64,000 nt of DNA from Escherichia phage vB_EfeM_pEP20: the sequence record OQ743992; one strand, written 5' to 3'. Below the pieces are notes generated by a model. That model did no database searches. It was not told the DNA's origin and saw nothing but the letters and a program-made list of their open reading frames with translations. A program made the translations under genes and the position numbers. This document shows, piece by piece, positions 37,050 through 61,053 of the stretch (position 1 is its first letter; each line of letters opens with the position of its first letter).

Positions 37050-37306
37050 GTAAGCCTCTTTTAAGTAACTATTAAGTTTTAATCTTTTATCTTAACGTAT
37101 TCTATACGTTATACTTTAAAGCTTTTTAAAAGCTATTAAATAATCTTTTAAGAGTTTTAAAGTATCTGTATAGTTAAACTGTTAAGTAACCTTTTAAGTA
37201 AAAACCCACTTCGCAAAGATTAACACCTTGTCAAGTACATTGTCAACTTGCTTTTTATAATTTTTTGCAGTAATGTATGAGGTTAATGATTTTAGAGGGA
37301 GTAAAA

Positions 37307-39449
37307 ATGGAAAACGTAGATTTTAAAAACTTACATTTAGTTGGTGATACAGAAACTGATGGTTTACTCCTTGAGTTCACTAAAGTACACGTAATGGCTT
37401 TCGCAGACTATAAATCTGACGATGAAGAGCCACCTGTATGGGTCTTTACAGATGAGCCTATCCTCGGTCACAAGTATACCAAGTACATTAAGGGTGGTTT
37501 GCGTGAAGGTGTTGAGTTTGCGTTAAAGGCAAAACGGCTTTGCATCCATAATGGTCTGGGTTATGACTGGTGGGTTTTCAATCACATTGCACCTGATTTA
37601 TGGAACTTTGATAATCCAAAGTGTAAGCCGTGGAGTAATTTCTTTCAGGATTCTCTTATCCAGTCTCGTGTTCAGTGGATGGATAGACCAACTCCAAAAG
37701 GCTATAAAGGTGCTCATGGCTTGGCAGCGTGGGGTGCTCGTGTTGGTGTTCGTAAACCAGAGATTGAACATTGGGGTGTGTGGAATGCAGAAATCTTCAC
37801 TCGTGTTGTAGAAGATATCCGTATTAACGCCAAAACTAAACGTGCACTGGATAATGAATATCTCAAACTTAAGAAGTGTGGTATAGACACTTATGAAACC
37901 TATATGAGAGCTAAAGAAACATCTTTCTGGATGAGTCAACAAGCTATCAATGGTTGGAAAGCTGATAAAGAGCTTATGGAGTTCCATGTAAAGGAACTTG
38001 ACAAGTTGACTAATGAGCTTGCTTCAGAAGTTGAACCACATCTTCCTCCAACTATTAAGACCAAAGGTAAAGTCACTGGAGAAGAGTTTGCAAAAGCTTG
38101 GAATGAATATGTTGAAACATTCGGTCATGCAGATGGACTGAAGAGAATTACAAAGTACCCTAAGACGAAGTATCGCCAACAGGTACGTAACGGTGAGATG
38201 CAGACATACGAAATCAAGCCATTTGGGAAGCCAACTACAAAGATTTTTAACATTGAAAAGCGGAATTGCTATACACCAACCAACTCCGTAACTGGTGAAG
38301 AGTACAAGGAAGGTTTTGTAGCAATGAAGGATGCTCGTGCAATTTGCAATGAGTTGAATGCAAAGATTGGTAAGAAGTGCAAAGACTGGAAGCCAGTAAA
38401 AACAGTTAAAACTGTGAAGTACTATAACAGCCATGTTGTTAACCACTTTGAACTTGAGTCAAGTCGCTACACAGGTTTGATTGATGCACCATATACACCA
38501 ATTGAGTTCGAAGTTTCTCGTATGACTCAGGTAGCAGTTGTTAAAGACTACTTGAAATCAGTTGGTTGGATTCCAGATGACTGGAACTACAAGAAAGACT
38601 CAGATGGTCGTCCTGTTAAGGTTTGTCGCTTCAAAGACAACAAAAAGATGATTACAAAACATCCTAAGTGGGATGAGATGGTGGAACGGTGTGGTTTGAG
38701 TTATGTTGAACACGAAGGTGTCCAGTACATTGAACATAACTGGTCTGTTAAGAAGTACACAGATTTGCTTGAGCCTTGCTTAATCCGTACTTCACCAAAA
38801 CTTACTGAATCATCTTATGACACGATTGAAGGTGAGCTTGGACAGAAGATTGCGAAATACTATACTTTGATGCACCGACGTAGAACTATTGAGAACTCAA
38901 AAGATGATGAAAAAGGTTGGTTGAACCAGATTCGTCCTGATGGTCGCCTTAGTGCTGGTGCAATGGTGTTTGGTACTTCAACTGGACGTATGACACAATA
39001 TGGTATTGTAAACGTGCCGTCTGGTGCTGCTGTCTATGGAGCACCTATGAGGGAGGTCTGGACTTGTGAAGAAGGTACTAATATTGTTTCAGCCGACATG
39101 AATAGCGCCCAACTTGTGCTACTGTGTAACTTTATGGGCGATAAAGATTTCACTAAAGCGGTGACAGAGGGTAAAGAAGAGGTTGAATTTGTCAAACAAG
39201 AGGATGGTAGATACTATTGCAAACATTTTGACCAGTATCTAAACCCAGCTATTGACAAGTATTTACATTATGATTCTGAAAATGACTTATACGTGGTGTA
39301 CTCAGGGACTGATGCACACACTTTGAATAGTATCTACTTCAGTCTTAATAAAGAGGAAGACATCTTGACATGTCGAGCTACTCAGGATACAAGTCTTCTT
39401 CAAGAAATTAGTAAAGGTCGTAAGAAAGCCAAAAATGGCATCTATGCGT
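37307..39449 (+). CDS. DNA polymerase, family A (T7 gp5-like), exon 1 (3'-5' exonuclease and most of the polymerase domain, to within motif B)
   Basis: N-terminal HLVGDTETDGL exonuclease motif; ends RKKAKNGIYA (compare T7 RDNAKTFIYGF) at a T; RBS GAGGGAG; continues at 40252. Confidence 0.75.
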
Positions 39450-40251
39450 CAGTGGCGCATGTAAAACGTTGTGAATTGCTGGAAGCCTAAGTCTGTAAAG
39501 ATATGGTAATCAGCAGCGAAGTCTCTGTTAGGACTCCTAAAACAAAGGAGAGAGACAATGGCAGGTTACGAAGAGAGATTATGCACTGAGTGTGGTACGG
39601 AGTTTAAACCATATCAATACAATCAGAAACGGTGCAGAAGTTGTGTATTAAAGTTTGACAGAAGGGCAGAACACAGGGTTCTTACTAAGAAATGCCCTAG
39701 TTGTGAGAAGGTGTTCATGCCGAGAACAGCAAGGCAAGTTTATTGTTCGTCACATTGCGGTGAGAAAGGTAGAGTTAAGAATTACTACCTAAGAACATAT
39801 GGATTGGAAAGAGGAGAGGTTGAGGCTCTACTCCGTGACTGTGATTACAAATGTCAAATTTGTGGCGGTGAAGGTTTTATCATGAATGGTTCACGACACA
39901 AGGCTAAACTTGTTGTTGACCATGACCATAAAACCGGAAAGGTAAGAGGTATGTTATGCCACAATTGCAACAGAGCTTTGGGGTTGCTTGCAGATAGTGT
40001 TGATAACATGCAAAGAGCAATTGACTATCTAAGCAAATGATATAACTATAGAGATTCCTAACAGAGAAACGTTCAGAGACTATCGAAAAGCATACTTAAC
40101 GTATGAACTGAGTAGAGTAGGGTGGTAAGCTAATGACCATTCCCAAGTGCAACGGTAGTATTACTACTACGTGATATAGTCCGACACTCCGTAGAAATGC
40201 GGAGAAGTTCATAAGAGAACTGGTACACCTTGCGAGTGTATTGACCAGATG
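39450..40251 (+). mobile_element. Intervening sequence in the polymerase gene, probably a group I intron, carrying an HNH endonuclease ORF
   Basis: Polymerase homology resumes in frame 802 bp downstream; 5' exon ends in T and insert ends in G; internal ORF has its own RBS. Confidence 0.6.
39558..40040 (+). CDS. HNH homing endonuclease (intron-encoded)
   Basis: Zinc-finger CxxC pairs plus VDHDHKTGKVRGMLCHNCNRALG HNH motif; RBS AAGGAG. Confidence 0.75.
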   Translation: MAGYEERLCTECGTEFKPYQYNQKRCRSCVLKFDRRAEHRVLTKKCPSCEKVFMPRTARQVYCSSHCGEKGRVKNYYLRTYGLERGEVEALLRDCDYKCQICGGEGFIMNGSRHKAKLVVDHDHKTGKVRGMLCHNCNRALGLLADSVDNMQRAIDYLSK

Positions 40252-40808
40252 TATTGTTCGGTGCAGGTGATGAGAAGTTTGCTAAGACGATTAAAGCATC
40301 TACAACTGAGGAAGGTGCTTTAACTAAGCAAACATACTTTGTACGTCTCCCTAAAATTAAGAAGCTGCTGGATAATTTAGAAGCAGACTTCAAAGCCACT
40401 AAGAAGGCTCTTGAAGAGGTATTTGGTAAGACTGCCGCAATCTCTAAAGGGGGTTTTGTAAAGGTTGCTGGAGCTTGGTTGTGGTGTAAATCTCCACATA
40501 AGTTATTGAATTATTTGCTTATGGGTTCTGAAAGTCAGGTTCAGAATGAAGCCATCAACCTTGCTTGTAGAAGAACTTGTGAAGAGGGTCTTACAAAGTT
40601 GAATGGTCGAAAACCAGCTATTGGCGCTAGATTGCTTTTAGCATATCACGATGAGAATAGTTGGGAGTGCCCAGAAGACATGACGCAGGATGTTAAAGCA
40701 GTAATTGACTGGATGTATGGTCAAGCGTCAAGAAATTTAGGGCTTAAGAAAGAAACGCTTGTTACGGGCACTGGTAAGGTTGGTAAAAGCTGGCTTGAAG
40801 TACACTAA
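40252..40808 (+). CDS. DNA polymerase, family A, exon 2 (rest of motif B to motif C and C-terminus)
   Basis: (L)LFGAGDEKF (compare T7 LYGAGDEKIG), SPHKLLNYLL (compare SPHAALNTLL), AYHDENSWEC motif C (compare WVHDEIQVGC), C-terminal GKSWLEVH (compare GPNWAICH). Confidence 0.75.
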
Positions 40809-40869
40809 TTAGTATTGACAAGGTGCTCATGGAAGAGTACCTTATACAATATCTTGTATAGGAGGACAT

Positions 40870-41088
40870 ATGACACTTTCAGAGATTGAAGTTCAGTTGC
40901 AATGTGCAGGTTATTCTCAAAAAGAGATTGAAGGGATGTTTATTGTTCTTTGCAGTAGCTGTAGGAATTTGAAGGTAAACCCTGAAGTTCTACGTAGAGT
41001 AGATATCTTTATTGCTGGAGGTAAAATCGCAAAAGATAAGACAGGCTACTTAAAAGGTGAGCGTGTAAATATTGAGAGTTTACTATGA
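40870..41088 (+). CDS. Small protein (72 aa), paralog of 41291-41503
   Basis: RBS AGGAGG; shared C-terminal IAGGKIAKDKTGYLKGERVNIE with the paralog. Confidence 0.5.
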   Translation: MTLSEIEVQLQCAGYSQKEIEGMFIVLCSSCRNLKVNPEVLRRVDIFIAGGKIAKDKTGYLKGERVNIESLL

Positions 41089-41294
41089 GCCACCGTGGAA
41101 GAACCCATGCAGCAATGATGAAAGGTGCTTCAAAGGAAACTATCAAGAACCGTAAGCAGAAGTTGTTTGAGAGAATGAACAGGCTAATTGACAATTCATC
41201 TCTTTCAGGTTCTGAGAAGGTTTTCTTGAAAGGTAATCTGAAAAGCATTGCACAAGAACTTATTGATATTGAATATTGGAGACATCAAAAATGA
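41085..41294 (+). CDS. Small basic protein (69 aa)
   Basis: ORF; overlapping start/stop with neighbours. Confidence 0.4.
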   Translation: MSHRGRTHAAMMKGASKETIKNRKQKLFERMNRLIDNSSLSGSEKVFLKGNLKSIAQELIDIEYWRHQK

Positions 41295-41503
41295 CACTTG
41301 CAGACGTTATTCAGCAACTTCACGATAATTGCTACACTCCAGAGTTGATTCAAGAGATGCTTATTGTGGTGATGCCTAGTAAGTTCGTAAAAGGTTTTAA
41401 TAGTGAATCTTTAAAGTCTGCGCATATCCTTATTGTTGACGGTAAGATTGCAAGAGACCGCACAGGAGTCCTTAAGGGTGAACGTATCAGTATTGACCTC
41501 TGA
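41291..41503 (+). CDS. Small protein (70 aa), paralog of 40870-41088
   Basis: Start moved to ATG (MTLADV...) after GGAGA; C-terminal IVDGKIARDRTGVLKGERISID. Confidence 0.5.
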   Translation: MTLADVIQQLHDNCYTPELIQEMLIVVMPSKFVKGFNSESLKSAHILIVDGKIARDRTGVLKGERISIDL

Positions 41504-41520
41504 GTATTGGGAACACCAAA

Positions 41521-41676
41521 ATGAAACGCAAAGTAAAATTATTTAGTTTATATGGGAGAGTCGGTAAAGGTTTTGATTGGCAACTGCTACGCTCAGATGT
41601 TAAAAGCAACGAATTAGCACAACTCATCATAAACTACCGGCGTACATACAGAGAAGTAGAACATCGTGAACAATAA
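41521..41676 (+). CDS. Small basic protein (51 aa), absent from the ORF track
   Basis: Hand translation MKRKVKLFSLYGRVGKGFDWQLLRSDVKSNELAQLIINYRRTYREVEHREQ; weak RBS. Confidence 0.3.
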   Translation: MKRKVKLFSLYGRVGKGFDWQLLRSDVKSNELAQLIINYRRTYREVEHREQ

Positions 41677-41691
41677 AACAGGAGATGTGTT

Positions 41692-41928
41692 ATGTGGAAA
41701 GCAGTAATTACACTTGGTGTTATTTTTCTAACTGGCTGCAACCCTTCTTATGAAGATAAGAATGCTTCTTATAGCCTCCCACCAGAAATGCAAGATTGTA
41801 AGGTCTATAAGTTACATGGTGATGCCATAAGCAGAGATATTGTTGTTGTCAGATGTCCAAACTCTCAAACAACAACATCTTATAGCTATGGCAAAAATGG
41901 TCAATCACACACTACTGTTATTGAGTGA
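41692..41928 (+). CDS. Small lipoprotein (78 aa)
   Basis: Signal peptide plus lipobox VIFLTGC; RBS AGGAG. Confidence 0.5.
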   Translation: MWKAVITLGVIFLTGCNPSYEDKNASYSLPPEMQDCKVYKLHGDAISRDIVVVRCPNSQTTTSYSYGKNGQSHTTVIE

Positions 41929-41938
41929 GGTTTTCAAG

Positions 41939-42145
41939 ATGGAAGTCCTAGTAAACTATATCTATTGTTATGATGTTGTTCACTCCACTACAACCGTAGC
42001 TCAACGTAATCCAATCGTCCCACGAGAAGGTGAGTTGGTTCGCATCGAGGGTTGGACTTACACTGTGGGAAGCATCATTCATAAGTTTGATGTTGCTGGT
42101 GATGTTCAAGTTATCGACGTAGAGATTGGTGGTAAGAGAAAATGA
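41939..42145 (+). CDS. Hypothetical protein (68 aa)
   Basis: Start moved to ATG (MEVLVN...) after GTGAGG. Confidence 0.4.
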   Translation: MEVLVNYIYCYDVVHSTTTVAQRNPIVPREGELVRIEGWTYTVGSIIHKFDVAGDVQVIDVEIGGKRK

Positions 42146-42333
42146 ACAAAGAAGACAAGCATAAAAATGCTGTACGAACTCCTGATGGAAAGGTTCAATC
42201 CTTCATCCTGACAGTTGGTGGAAAGCCGTTTCGTTGCCACTGCGGAGCAAACTGTTTTCATAAACCAGATAAAAATGACTTAGAGCTTTACGCATGTAAT
42301 GCTTGCAATACTTGGTATCACTCAGAGGAATAA
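42142..42333 (+). CDS. Small zinc-ribbon protein (63 aa)
   Basis: CHCGANCFHK...CNACNTWYH. Confidence 0.45.
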   Translation: MNKEDKHKNAVRTPDGKVQSFILTVGGKPFRCHCGANCFHKPDKNDLELYACNACNTWYHSEE

Positions 42334-43438: not shown

Positions 43439-43444
43439 AAGTTG

Positions 43445-43472
43445 TTGACATAGAAAATTTGGTGAGTATACT
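43445..43472 (+). promoter_or_regulatory. Sigma70-like promoter (TTGACA, 16 bp, TATACT)
   Basis: Read directly downstream of the ligase stop. Confidence 0.4.
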
Positions 43473-43535
43473 GAGCAGCATAAACCAACTGGTACTCACC
43501 AGCATCACTTAAGAATCTTTAAGAGGGGTTTTTAA

Positions 43536-43635
43536 GTGAGGTATGGTAAGGCGCGGTGAGGTCAGGTAATGTGATGTTTGGTTTGGTGCGGTGATGTGCT
43601 GTCCGGTAATGTCCGGTGCGGTAAGGTATGGGTAG
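43536..43635. repeat. Pentanucleotide-periodic array 1: about 19 units of NNGGT
   Basis: gaggt atggt aaggc gcggt gaggt caggt aatgt gatgt ttggt ttggt gcggt gatgt gctgt ccggt aatgt ccggt gcggt aaggt atggg. Confidence 0.6.
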
Positions 43636-43700
43636 TTAGTCTCAGCTACATTAAAATGAAACTTACCTTTTTAAAAGGTCTTTAAGAGGGTTTTTTAATA

Positions 43701-43770
43701 AGGTCTGGTGTAGTAGGGTTGGGCATGGTATAGTCCGGTGTGGTGTGGCACGGTATGGGTGGATGGTAGT
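43701..43770. repeat. Pentanucleotide-periodic array 2: about 14 units of NNGGT
   Basis: aaggt ctggt gtagt agggt tgggc atggt atagt ccggt gtggt gtggc acggt atggg tggat ggtag. Confidence 0.6.
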
Positions 43771-43848
43771 AGCCACGTTAAAAATCTACCAAGTTTCTAA
43801 AGAGTCTTCTGTTGAGGGTTCTTTACAAACAACTTAACAATCAACTAA

Positions 43849-44454
<606 letters not shown>

Positions 44455-44456
44455 TT

Positions 44457-44897
44457 ATGAATACAAAAGCATTAGCAGCAAAGTTTAGTTACGGTGACAC
44501 TGTATCACATTCTGAGATGGACACCTTCTTAGGTATTGTGAAGCCAACTTATCAAGGCGACATTGTTAAGTACGAAGATGAAATGAAGGCTTATGCACTT
44601 ACACGTCTAAACCGACTTGAGAAGTTTATTGAGAAGCTTCTTAAAGAAGAGAAGATTTATCTGGTTGCTTCAATGGGTGTTGGTTATCGTGTGGTTGAAC
44701 CTAAACATCAAGCAACTATTGCAAAACGTAAAATGTCTGGTAAGATTGGTCGAGCTTTAAAGCAAGCCACTCAAGCTATTGAGAATGTGAACACTATGGA
44801 ACTTAGCCATCAAGAACGCTCACGACTGATTGAACAGCAAAACCACTTAGCTGCTATGAAAGCTAACATTAACAAGCAACGTAGAAAACCTTTCTAA
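44457..44897 (+). CDS. Hypothetical protein (146 aa)
   Basis: ORF 3 nt after upstream stop. Confidence 0.5.
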   Translation: MNTKALAAKFSYGDTVSHSEMDTFLGIVKPTYQGDIVKYEDEMKAYALTRLNRLEKFIEKLLKEEKIYLVASMGVGYRVVEPKHQATIAKRKMSGKIGRALKQATQAIENVNTMELSHQERSRLIEQQNHLAAMKANINKQRRKPF

Positions 44898-44908
44898 GTT
44901 GACTAGGT

Positions 44909-44931
44909 AGCCTCTTCGGAGGCTCCTTTTT
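44909..44931 (+). terminator. Intrinsic terminator (AGCCUC-UUCG-GAGGCU then U5)
   Basis: Hairpin plus U run immediately after the 44457-44897 stop. Confidence 0.55.
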
Positions 44932-44960
44932 AAAAGGTCTTTAAACAGGGTCTTTTAATA

Positions 44961-45026
44961 AGGTGCGGTGCTGTCCTGTTCTGTAGTGTCTGGTAAGACC
45001 TAGTAATGTTCGGTCAGGTATGGGTA
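44961..45026. repeat. Pentanucleotide-periodic array 3: about 13 units of NNGGT
   Basis: aaggt gcggt gctgt cctgt tctgt agtgt ctggt aagac ctagt aatgt tcggt caggt atggg. Confidence 0.6.
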
Positions 45027-45090
45027 GTTAGTCTCAGCTACATTAAAATGAGACTTACATCACTTAAGAGTCTTTTAAGAGGGTTTTTAA

Positions 45091-45176
45091 GTGAGGTGTG
45101 GCACGGTAATGTTAGGTAGGGTCAGGTCAGGTCAGGTGAGGTAAGGTAAGGTAATGTATGGAAGGATGGCAGTAGC
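45091..45176. repeat. Pentanucleotide-periodic array 4: about 16 units of NNGGT, including GGTCA x3
   Basis: gaggt gtggc acggt aatgt taggt agggt caggt caggt caggt gaggt aaggt aaggt aatgt atgga. Confidence 0.6.
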
Positions 45177-45212
45177 CTTATAAAAAATCTGCCAAATAAG
45201 CTATAAAATCTG

Positions 45213-54199: not shown

Positions 54200-55668
54200 T
54201 TACTCCTTAGTGATGGTATACTGGCTACTTTCCCAAACAGTATATTGGTCACCGTCAACAGTAATTCTTGCTGTAGTATACTGCCCGTCACTAGGTGGAA
54301 CTGATTGGTTATTTGATAATGCTACTTTAACTTCATTAATCTCAATACCTTTAATTACGTCATAGATATGTCCATAGGTTCTGTTAGGGATAACATCATT
54401 ACCAACCTTAAGAGTTCTTCCGTAGGCATTAATACCTTGTACAATGCTGTCTCTGATATCCTCTTCAGGGATTGTCAAGCTTTCTTCATCATATAAAGAG
54501 TAAGAGACTTTAACAAATGCGTATTTTGGTGTTGGTCTGCTGAAATAAATATTATGTGCCAAACCACCTAAATCATGGGCTGTACCAAAAATTGAGCCAT
54601 AAGCCCTAATACCAGCAGGTTTTGTATCCCAGATTGCTTGAGCTACATTATCATTTTGACCACCAACTACGACAATCTTAAAAGATTTTGGTGGGAGACC
54701 TTCTGAGTTTGTCTCTTCAGTATCATTTTCAACACCTGAAGCATCTGAGACACCTTGAACTCTTTTAACAGCAGCTACAATTGCATCTAAAGTCCCTACA
54801 CCAGTAACTGCTAAGGATTCTAAATATCTCTGTCTAAGTTCTGTGTCAGTTTCTTCGTTTCTACCAGTTGTTAAGTCATATCTGTTATAAATACTGTCAA
54901 GACCATCAACAGTTGTCTCAATCTCAATAAGCGTACCAGCCAAAGCAGGGGTAGCACCCACCTCTTCAGCTACTACATCTGAAATAGTTGTAATTTTTGT
55001 AAAGGTCAGAAATGTTGTCGCAGTGACAACCATAGGGTTTGTTCTGGCAATGATATCACCCTCATCTTTATAGACTCTCAATGATGCTCCATCATTAATG
55101 ACTTCTGCCTTTGCTACAATACCACCATTAATAGCTTCTGCTAATTTTGTTAGAAGTGTGGTGATTGTGTCTGATGAGGTTGGTTTATATGAGAAAATGA
55201 CGTTATCAATAATAATAACATAATCTGCATCAGTTCGTAAAGAGTTAACTTCAAGGACAGCTTCAACACAATATGATGGGGTTAGGGTAATGTTGTTAAC
55301 TGGATAAAAGATATTTCCGGCAGTACTTCTTAATCTTGTTGTTGAAGGAATGGTAGCACCAGTCGTTCCAGTAAACTCTACCTGACCTCTTGTTGCCTGT
55401 GCAACATATCTATATACAGCATTTAAAGCTGTAATATCATCAAGGTTAAAGCCTTCGGCCTTGTCAATTGTTCCACCGTCATAGACTTCTGATAGAATCT
55501 CATGGGTATCTGCTAAAGACCTTGCAATTGAAGCTAGGAAGAGTCCTAATTGACTATCTTCAGAAACGTCAAGGTTTGGTGAAATATCTCTAAGAAGTCT
55601 TGATTTGATATTATCAAAAATCTCCTGATATCTTAGAGTTTGTAATCCTGTTGTAGTTAGTCCTGCCA

Positions 55669-55669
<1 letters not shown>
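54200..55669 (-). CDS. Putative baseplate J-like protein (489 aa)
   Basis: Size and position (Mu/P2-like order). Confidence 0.45.

Positions 55670-61053
<5,384 letters not shown>

Follow-up and report, generated by a model that had tools for sequence, protein, structure and literature searches.

We found that the two small proteins encoded on either side of one unrelated gene, directly behind the DNA polymerase gene of Escherichia phage vB_EfeM_pEP20, belong to an old family of two types, which is conserved and under selection and stands at the head of a recombining cassette of small genes. This part of the picture is well supported. As to what the proteins do, our favoured reading, which we hold at a probability of roughly 0.4 to 0.5 and which draws on analogy, is that both may be conditionally useful, non-enzymatic binders of a host, defence or competitor factor. 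We rank it before an accessory role in the replisome, followed by regulation through nucleic acid binding and, last, by a recent duplicate formed in an arms race.

The window, that is, the whole stretch of 64,000 nucleotides that was analysed (record OQ743992), comes from a Felix O1-like myovirus (Ounavirinae) of the genus Felixounavirus, and the region discussed here is the interval between the DNA polymerase and the DNA ligase genes. It matches 256 phage records, the best nucleotide match being Escherichia phage JH2 (94.7% over 2.1 kb). We call the two family members T1 and T2 and the gene between them G69; their JH2 counterparts gp060 (T1), gp061 (G69) and gp062 (T2) are each annotated as "hypothetical protein". 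The features are as follows.

40814-40866, plus strand: promoter-like element and 5' leader with ribosome binding site (TTGACA-N17-TACCTT, then TATACAATATCTTGTATA, AGGAGG)
40870-41088, plus strand: T1, 72 aa, phrog_4230, T1 type (Mooglevirus-like lineage); ORF and PHROG profile
41085-41294, plus strand: G69, 69 aa, very basic (pI 10.3), phrog_5180; ORF and PHROG profile
41291-41503, plus strand: T2, 70 aa, ATG at 41291, phrog_4230, T2 type (common Felixounavirus lineage); ORF and PHROG profile
41521-42333, plus strand: rest of the variable small-gene cassette in the polymerase-ligase interval, downstream of T2; ORFs, listed singly below
41521-41676, plus strand: 51-aa basic protein, PHROG 2381; ORF
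41692-41928, plus strand: 78-aa predicted lipoprotein, PHROG 902; ORF
41939-42145, plus strand: 68-aa protein (p68), PHROG 4427; ORF
42142-42333, plus strand: 63-aa Cys-rich protein, PHROG 5768; ORF

T1, G69 and T2 lie exactly where the sequence-only reading had placed them, and together they head the cassette directly 3' of the family-A DNA polymerase gene. A strong ribosome binding site (AGGAGG) precedes T1. The TGA stop of T1 overlaps the ATG of G69 in an ATGA at 41085-41088, and a second ATGA, at 41291-41294, joins the stop of G69 to the start of T2 in the same way, which suggests that the three genes may be translationally coupled. None of the four PHROGs downstream of T2, listed above in the order of their genes, has a functional annotation, and among 32 related loci each of the four genes is variably present or absent.

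Two other features of the window lie close by. An HNH endonuclease ORF, with sub-threshold matches to group I introns on its flanks, interrupts the DNA polymerase gene. Just after the ligase gene, at 43.44-45.2 kb of the window, there is a locus matching VIPR, a system described only recently, with four arrays of YNNGG pentanucleotide repeats that have conserved leaders and tails. The arrays flank a 195-aa protein (97% identical to a SUSP1 protein) and a 146-aa protein; JH2 does not have this segment.

The sequence-only reading had described the 72-aa and the 70-aa proteins as paralogues with a common C-terminal motif, separated by an unrelated gene, and all of this holds. The motif is found in both proteins (T1 IAGGKIAKDKTGYLKGERVNIE, T2 IVDGKIARDRTGVLKGERISID), and BLASTP aligns them without a gap at 29 of 69 identical positions (42%, E 2e-16). 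Their Smith-Waterman score of 120 compares with 22.2 +/- 4.3 for shuffled sequences (maximum 51, n = 2000; z = 22.9), so that the similarity is backed by alignment statistics. Furthermore, both match the HMM of phrog_4230 (T1 with E 7.4e-37 over residues 1-72, T2 with E 1.6e-41 over residues 1-69), and the AlphaFold2 models (pLDDT 90.4 for T1 and 93.1 for T2) have the same order of elements, namely helices at residues 3-12 and 17-21, a strand at 25-28, a helix at 38-43 and strands at 46-49 and 52-56, followed by the conserved loop. G69, on the other hand, gives z values of 1.2 and 0.9 against T1 and T2 in the shuffle test and falls into a different PHROG (phrog_5180, E 2e-46). Taken together, the homology tests, the PHROG profiles and the matching models confirm that T1 and T2 are homologous and have a compact alpha/beta fold in common. 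A search of all 917 six-frame ORFs of the window with the family profile found T1 and T2 and no further copy.

Named members of PHROG 4230 are Felix O1 ORF93 (Felix01p173), JH2 gp060 and gp062, UAB_Phi87 ORF99 and ORF101, Moogle gp37, Sf19 gp75 and SUSP1 AVU07_agp044; the last is also placed in phrog_4230 by the annotation table of a CRISPRi-ART study (PMC11879866). T1 and T2 are 86-100% identical to named members, and nothing sets the proteins of the window apart. For example, T1 is 97% identical to JH2 gp060 and 92% to gp75 of the Mooglevirus Sf19, and T2 is 93% identical to Felix O1 ORF93. G69 is 100% identical to Felix O1 ORF94 and 54% identical to gp83 of phage phiEa21-4. Our literature search on the function of Felix01p173, JH2_060 and phrog_4230 returned only tables with the entry "hypothetical protein", and in the literature we found no description of PHROG 4230 splitting into two types that can occur in tandem.

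Next, we asked how the family is distributed. With tblastn it was found in about 252-254 phage records; of the 256 records matching the region, about 252-254 have one copy or more. Copy number, which the sequence-only reading had proposed to compare, does vary among relatives: both types occur, at two places, in about 34-35 of some 254 records (about 13%), and the rest have one type. A T1-type copy is missing from 187 records, which have the T2 type only or, in a few cases, a Michonne-type protein, and about 36 records are without a T2-type copy. Among the 32 loci studied in detail we see at least five configurations of presence and absence after the polymerase gene:

T1, G69, T2 (the tandem state): the window, JH2 and UAB_Phi87
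G69, T2 (the commonest): includes Felix O1, with ORF94 and ORF93 after an HNH gene
T2 alone: VpaE1, SUSP1 and SUSP2
T1, G69: Moogle and Sf19
Michonne-type protein, G69: this protein is T1-like at its N-terminus and T2-like in its body

It is therefore well supported that the tandem state seen in the window is a minority configuration. The family is also narrow: of 1.84 billion representatives, only 13 have an E value of 1e-3 or lower. The Erwinia relative phiEa21-4 has homologous polymerase, ligase and G69 (gp83) genes and no member of the family, which rules out a family spanning all Ounavirinae. By these searches, the family is restricted to the Ounavirinae of enterobacteria; phage phiEco32 probably has a remote homologue.

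The orthologues of all three genes are under purifying selection. Pairwise Nei-Gojobori comparisons gave a dN/dS of about 0.1 for T1, about 0.21 for T2 (0.15 over codons 1-66) and 0.06 for G69. There is also information on expression and requirement. In Felix O1 the transcript of ORF93, the T2 orthologue, was detected by RT-PCR with a peak at 25 min; the polymerase (ORF96), the ligase (ORF88), ORF89 and ORF90 belong to the same class (PMC3185647, Table 3). In SUSP1 the single-copy T2 orthologue AVU07_agp044, annotated as phrog_4230 and Felix01p173, was "Not Fit" in a transcriptome-wide CRISPRi-ART screen in laboratory E. coli K-12 (fitness -0.30, KS p 0.79, 6 guides; PMC11879866, supplementary file 16), while the polymerase scored 2.72 (p 0.009) and was "Fit" (PMC11879866). 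The T2-type protein thus appears to be dispensable in this laboratory host. Since the ligase was "Not Fit" as well and the authors report false negatives (PMC11879866), we take the screen as weak-to-moderate evidence of dispensability in K-12 and not as proof.

These data bear on the possibility that T1 and T2 serve the replisome as accessory or regulatory subunits, for example partners of the family-A polymerase or of the ligase, whose genes would be kept adjacent for co-expression and stoichiometry. The fixed position agrees with it: in Felix O1, VpaE1, Moogle, Michonne, Sf19, SUSP1 and three uncultured contigs a family gene follows the polymerase gene with 0-1 genes in between, and in the contigs the members are only 36-48% identical and still stand before the ligase gene. 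The 25-min peak alongside polymerase and ligase, the purifying selection and the presence of at least one copy in nearly every matching record point the same way; indeed, near-universal retention across three genera, synteny and co-expression would suit a replication-linked role equally well as the role that we favour. For an essential replisome component, however, one would expect loss to abolish growth, and the SUSP1 screen, with its false negatives, called a fitness effect for the polymerase and none for agp044. We consider a replisome subunit improbable.

The sequence upstream of T1 brings in a further candidate role. The 50 nt GTTGACAAGGTGCTCAKGGAAGAGTACCTTATACWRTATCTTRTATAGGAGG are nearly invariant in all 25 related loci that were compared (26 sequences, counting the window) and always lie directly 5' of the first gene, whether this is T1, G69 or T2; they are kept at the head of the cassette even where an HNH gene has been inserted after the polymerase. 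The element occurs once in the window. Its TTGACA is perfect and its -10-like TACCTT is weak (3 of 6 consensus positions), which is why a scan of the window for sigma-70 consensus promoters did not call it. We infer from its conservation and position that it may be the promoter and leader of the cassette. An imperfect palindrome 5' of T1, TATACAAtatcTTGTATA, was considered as an RNA hairpin, and we rejected it: its variants among the loci are mismatches and not compensatory, so that a conserved hairpin is not supported, and Rfam has no match there.

Potentially, T1 and T2 could be nucleic-acid-binding regulators, acting either on their own expression at the upstream element or the palindrome, or on the translation of the coupled operon. 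The 50-nt element is conserved also across its 17-nt spacer, which would suggest a bound factor, and the N-terminus is a helix-loop-helix in the AlphaFold2 models. On the other hand, the isoelectric points of 7.7 (T1) and 6.0 (T2) are neutral or slightly acidic, the Pfam, NCBIfam and PDB profile searches detected no HTH, RHH or other DNA-binding family, the variants of the palindrome do not compensate each other, and the very basic G69 makes the better candidate for binding nucleic acids. A regulatory role is, in our view, even less probable than a place in the replisome.

How the different configurations came about can be partly read from the 5' ends of the genes. T1 and T2 genes start with almost the same 14 nt, ATGACACTT[T/G]CAGA. 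Of the 11 T2-type genes that stand first in the cassette, 10 have the T1 triplet TCA as codon 4; of the 17 T2 genes behind G69, 16 have GCA. The two exceptions are the locus L030 and Felix O1 (locus L040); this signature is a single nucleotide and may trace to one ancestral event inherited by a clade. The T1-like codon 4 in T2-first genes points to a deletion between the near-identical 5' ends of the paralogues. Exchange with other phages is seen in the identities along the interval. Sf19 and Moogle are 98% identical in polC and 97% in the ligase, while T1, G69 and p68 reach 79%, 88% and 57%. Between the window and Sf19, polC and the ligase are 90% and 86% identical, and T1, G69 and p68 92%, 94% and 87%. 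The configurations may accordingly have arisen by recombination, with deletion between paralogue 5' ends as one route and exchange of the small-gene cassette between genera as a second one. Tandem paralogues would then be possible mediators of precise gene loss.

The sequence-only reading had spoken of a recent duplication with divergence of a kind that often marks arms-race genes. Spelled out, this would be a recent tandem duplication in place, with the copies diverging quickly in an arms race with a host target. The variation in copy number among close relatives is in line with this, and so is a single surface region. Site entropy in 125 proteins of the T2 type peaks at residues 24, 35, 38-43 (helix 3) and 67, and a variable patch made of residue 24 and the helix at 35-43, which we picked after seeing the data, has a dN/dS of 0.63 as compared with 0.06-0.10 elsewhere, a value that is still below 1. 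The N-terminal helices and the C-terminal hairpin and loop, GKIxKDxTGxLKGER, hardly vary, even among the most distant members. As the overall dN/dS is 0.15-0.21 for T2 and near 0.1 for T1, and the one patch chosen post hoc stays below 1, "arms race" is not supported as a description of these genes in general.

Recency itself is contradicted by several results. The T1 and T2 genes are 55% identical in nucleotides, and the proposed comparison of the paralogues gives a dN of 0.60 with a pS of 0.57 and a dS of at least 1.07, which is near saturation. Each type has its own orthologues, about 64-100% identical, in different genera: T1-type proteins (64-97% identity) are found in some Felixounaviruses and Moogleviruses, T2-type proteins (84-96% identity) form more than 130 clusters, and the two types are separately conserved across Felixounavirus, Mooglevirus and Suspvirus. 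In a neighbour-joining tree the T2 and Michonne-type proteins form a clade with 92% bootstrap support and T1 is placed loosely beside distant family members of uncultured phages, so that the split between T1 and T2 is as deep as the split from these outgroup phages. The 92% identity between T1 of the window and the single copy of Sf19 means, moreover, that T1 was not born in this genome. From the nucleotide identity, the near-saturated synonymous sites, the separate orthologues and the deep split we conclude that the duplication is not recent; either it is old, or T1 and T2 arose in lineages of their own and came together later. A recent duplicate in an arms race is therefore very unlikely.

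We also searched for resemblances to known proteins. T1 and T2 have no match in Pfam, no family-level match in NCBIfam, no match to a PADLOC defence model at E <= 1, and neither a profile match in the PDB nor a fold match among solved structures. One attractive lead was an origin of T2 from a fragment of the host LPS GlcNAc-transferase WaaK/RfaK, the enzyme behind the receptor sugar of Felix O1, with T2 interfering with receptor synthesis. T2 does match NCBIfam NF012028 (residues 4-53, E 2.6e-4) and the WaaK of the E. coli R2 core (BLASTP, 15 of 46 identities, pairwise E 3e-6). However, the NF012028 match scores 20 bits where the curated cut-off is 618, and only T2-type members match. Since the resemblance is confined to the T2 lineage and disappears at the profile level (probability of 2.7% for the family profile against WaaK), we reject this origin and give it next to no credence. 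Two further resemblances were discarded, the first by inspection. The DKTG of T1 recalls the phosphorylation motif of P-type ATPases; T2 has DRTG and gp100 of phiEco32 SRHG at this place, and 70 aa are too few for the fold. The 1484-aa repeat protein P0158 (E 5e-5, six stretches) matches through a low-complexity repeat with a similar hairpin-like motif, and we regard this match as spurious.

One distant resemblance persisted. A Foldseek search of viral models (BFVD) returned an orthologue, a protein of EP335 and a 73-aa protein of phiEco32 (TM 0.6, probability 0.96); we equate this last entry, B0FIR2, with gp100 only by its length and by the hhalign result. In hhalign, gp100 (73 aa) aligns to the family profile with E 1e-4, HYLIIDGVLVKSRHG against HILIVDGKIARDRTG, and PHROG 4230 is its second-best PHROG (E 0.067), the link being below conventional significance in each single test. 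The other 73-aa protein of this phage, gp104, does not align to the family profile. Judged by sequence profile and predicted structure together, gp100 of phiEco32 (Kuravirus) is probably a remote homologue of PHROG 4230.

We come back to our favoured reading, that T1 and T2 bind a factor that matters under some conditions only. Both proteins are small, featureless with respect to catalysis and near-neutral, and they combine an invariant hairpin with a variable helix, which is why we favour a binding protein. The co-expression with replication genes together with no apparent need in K-12, the absence from the Erwinia relative and the sharing with phiEco32 are the reasons for favouring a conditional role. 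The family, of about 70 aa and with an alpha/beta fold for which no relative has been solved, split long ago into the lineages of T1 and T2. A conserved partner would probably be contacted through the invariant beta-hairpin and loop at the C-terminus (GKIxKDxTGxLKGER), and helix 3, which varies, may tune specificity. The benefit would be conditional: the proteins probably act on a factor of the host, on a defence element or on a competitor, and would not be obligatory parts of the replisome. The two types could be redundant or differ in specificity.

That the mechanism is directed at the host is plausible, by exclusion and by analogy. The suggestion of the sequence-only reading that such proteins inhibit host factors likewise stays plausible and is indirectly favoured by the dispensability in K-12, the absence from phiEa21-4 and the homologue in phiEco32. 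In its most specific form, the idea would be that PHROG 4230 consists of small effectors with a new fold, of which every enterobacterial Felix O1-like phage needs at least one copy on its natural hosts, with T1 and T2 as specificity classes set by helix 3 that bind the same kind of target through the hairpin. Taken as a whole this is rather unlikely. If it were true, carrying both types would widen the range of hosts or rivals that a phage can handle, and the homologue in phiEco32, an unrelated coliphage, would tie the target to the host rather than to the phage.

So far, these are ordinary conserved small phage genes, which offer an experimental handle and no new mechanism. Felix O1-like phages are widely used for typing of Salmonella and E. 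coli, for biocontrol and for therapy, and most of their small genes are unannotated. The family is thus a concrete and cheap target for experiments on host range and counter-defence.

Finally, we compared the family with known systems. Like T1 and T2, phiEco32 gp100 has a TLS-hydrophobic N-terminal helix and a hairpin (HYLIIDGVLVKSRHG, cf. HILIVDGKIARDRTG); unlike them, it has an N-terminal extension of 18 residues and does not have the LKGER tail. Its gene lies away from the polymerase, among small uncharacterised genes upstream of the replication genes, a part of the phiEco32 genome that has been described as a likely host-takeover cluster (PMC8948821).

As regards genomic position and lifestyle, to which the likeness would be limited, T1 and T2 may be compared with the 5.x genes of phage T7; a resemblance in sequence or structure was not found. 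Genes 5.3-5.9 of T7 are small and directly follow the gene of a family-A DNA polymerase. Their expression goes with that of the replication genes, and they are dispensable in laboratory hosts; their products gp5.5, gp5.7 and gp5.9 bind the host factors H-NS, sigma-S RNA polymerase and RecBCD, respectively. T4-like and T5-like phages, in turn, have plastic regions that are rich in small ORFs and homing endonucleases. The polymerase-ligase interval of the Felix O1-like phages resembles these regions in that it varies gene by gene and draws insertions of HNH endonucleases. It differs from them in that, despite this flux, nearly all genomes keep one or two copies of one family.

The DNA polymerase gene (37277-40808) is interrupted by an ORF for an HNH endonuclease, so that the region reads as follows:

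37277-39490: DNA polymerase part 1 (737 aa)
39558-40040: HNH endonuclease ORF inside the polymerase gene
40254-40808: DNA polymerase part 2 (184 aa)

On either side of the HNH ORF we find a match to a group I intron (39477-39567, E 0.0017; 39905-40204, E 0.93). Both matches are sub-threshold and suggest that the ORF may be an intron-borne homing endonuclease. The polymerase gene is unbroken in Felix O1 and the Moogleviruses, and records such as that of Escherichia phage JH2 carry two CDS annotated as 'DNA polymerase'.

Between the polymerase gene and the cassette, the run of small genes that precedes the ligase gene, there is a 50-nt element (40814-40866), which we compared with the equivalent position in 25 related loci. 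Conservation extends through the spacer of its putative promoter. TGCTCA precedes TATAC(A/T) by 13 nt, an arrangement that loosely resembles an activator-dependent middle promoter. Where an HNH gene is inserted after the polymerase, the element is always found downstream of that gene.

The cassette is headed by the paralogs T1 and T2 and the unrelated gene G69 between them. G69, a conserved gene, is missing from the published table of UAB_Phi87 (JN225449). At its position the table lists ORF100 (55499-55813, 104 aa), which runs in the opposite direction; this is probably a misannotation. Residues 4-49 of T2 (41300-41450) show local similarity to residues 122-166 of WaaK from E. coli and Salmonella, with 15 identities in 46 positions and an NCBIfam E value of 2.6e-4. 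WaaK adds the GlcNAc that serves Felix O1 as receptor. We rejected the similarity as a lead: it is confined to the T2 lineage and without support at the level of the family. Two further cassette proteins are:

41692-41928: 78-aa protein of PHROG 902, predicted lipoprotein
42142-42333: 63-aa protein with the paired Cys motifs CHCGANC ... CNAC

The lipoprotein prediction follows from the N-terminus of the 78-aa protein, MWKAVITLGVIFLTGC, a signal peptide with a lipobox; this protein might act in superinfection exclusion. The paired motifs of the 63-aa protein look like a putative zinc ribbon. The annotated start of the ligase (42299) falls within the 3' end of the 63-aa gene. Relatives differ in the presence of both proteins, and homologues of the 63-aa protein are duplicated in some.

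Immediately 3' of the ligase gene lies a VIPR-like locus (43440-45200, +), with four arrays of the pentanucleotide repeats YNNGG/GGTNN:

43445-43472: near-consensus promoter
~43537-43631, +: array 1, 19 units
~43700-43759, +: array 2
43867-44454, +: CDS, 195 aa
44457-44897, +: second CDS, 146 aa
~44960-45024, +: array 3
~45092-45161, +: array 4, 14 units

Every YNNGG array is preceded by the conserved leader ctttaagagggtttttaa and followed by a conserved tail of ~35 nt. Searches of the locus in Rfam and Pfam gave no match. The segment is not present in JH2; most of the related loci examined carry repeat arrays or the two proteins of 195 and 146 aa, which occur as a pair in 18-19 loci. The 195-aa protein and its counterpart in SUSP1, a relative with T2 alone, are 97% identical; the truncated match of the protein at L045 coincides with the SUSP1 gene AVU07_agp039. 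The layout agrees with that described for the vipr and vap genes and the vrRNAs (bioRxiv 10.64898/2026.04.26.720920), and the 195-aa protein is a candidate for the Vipr of that work.
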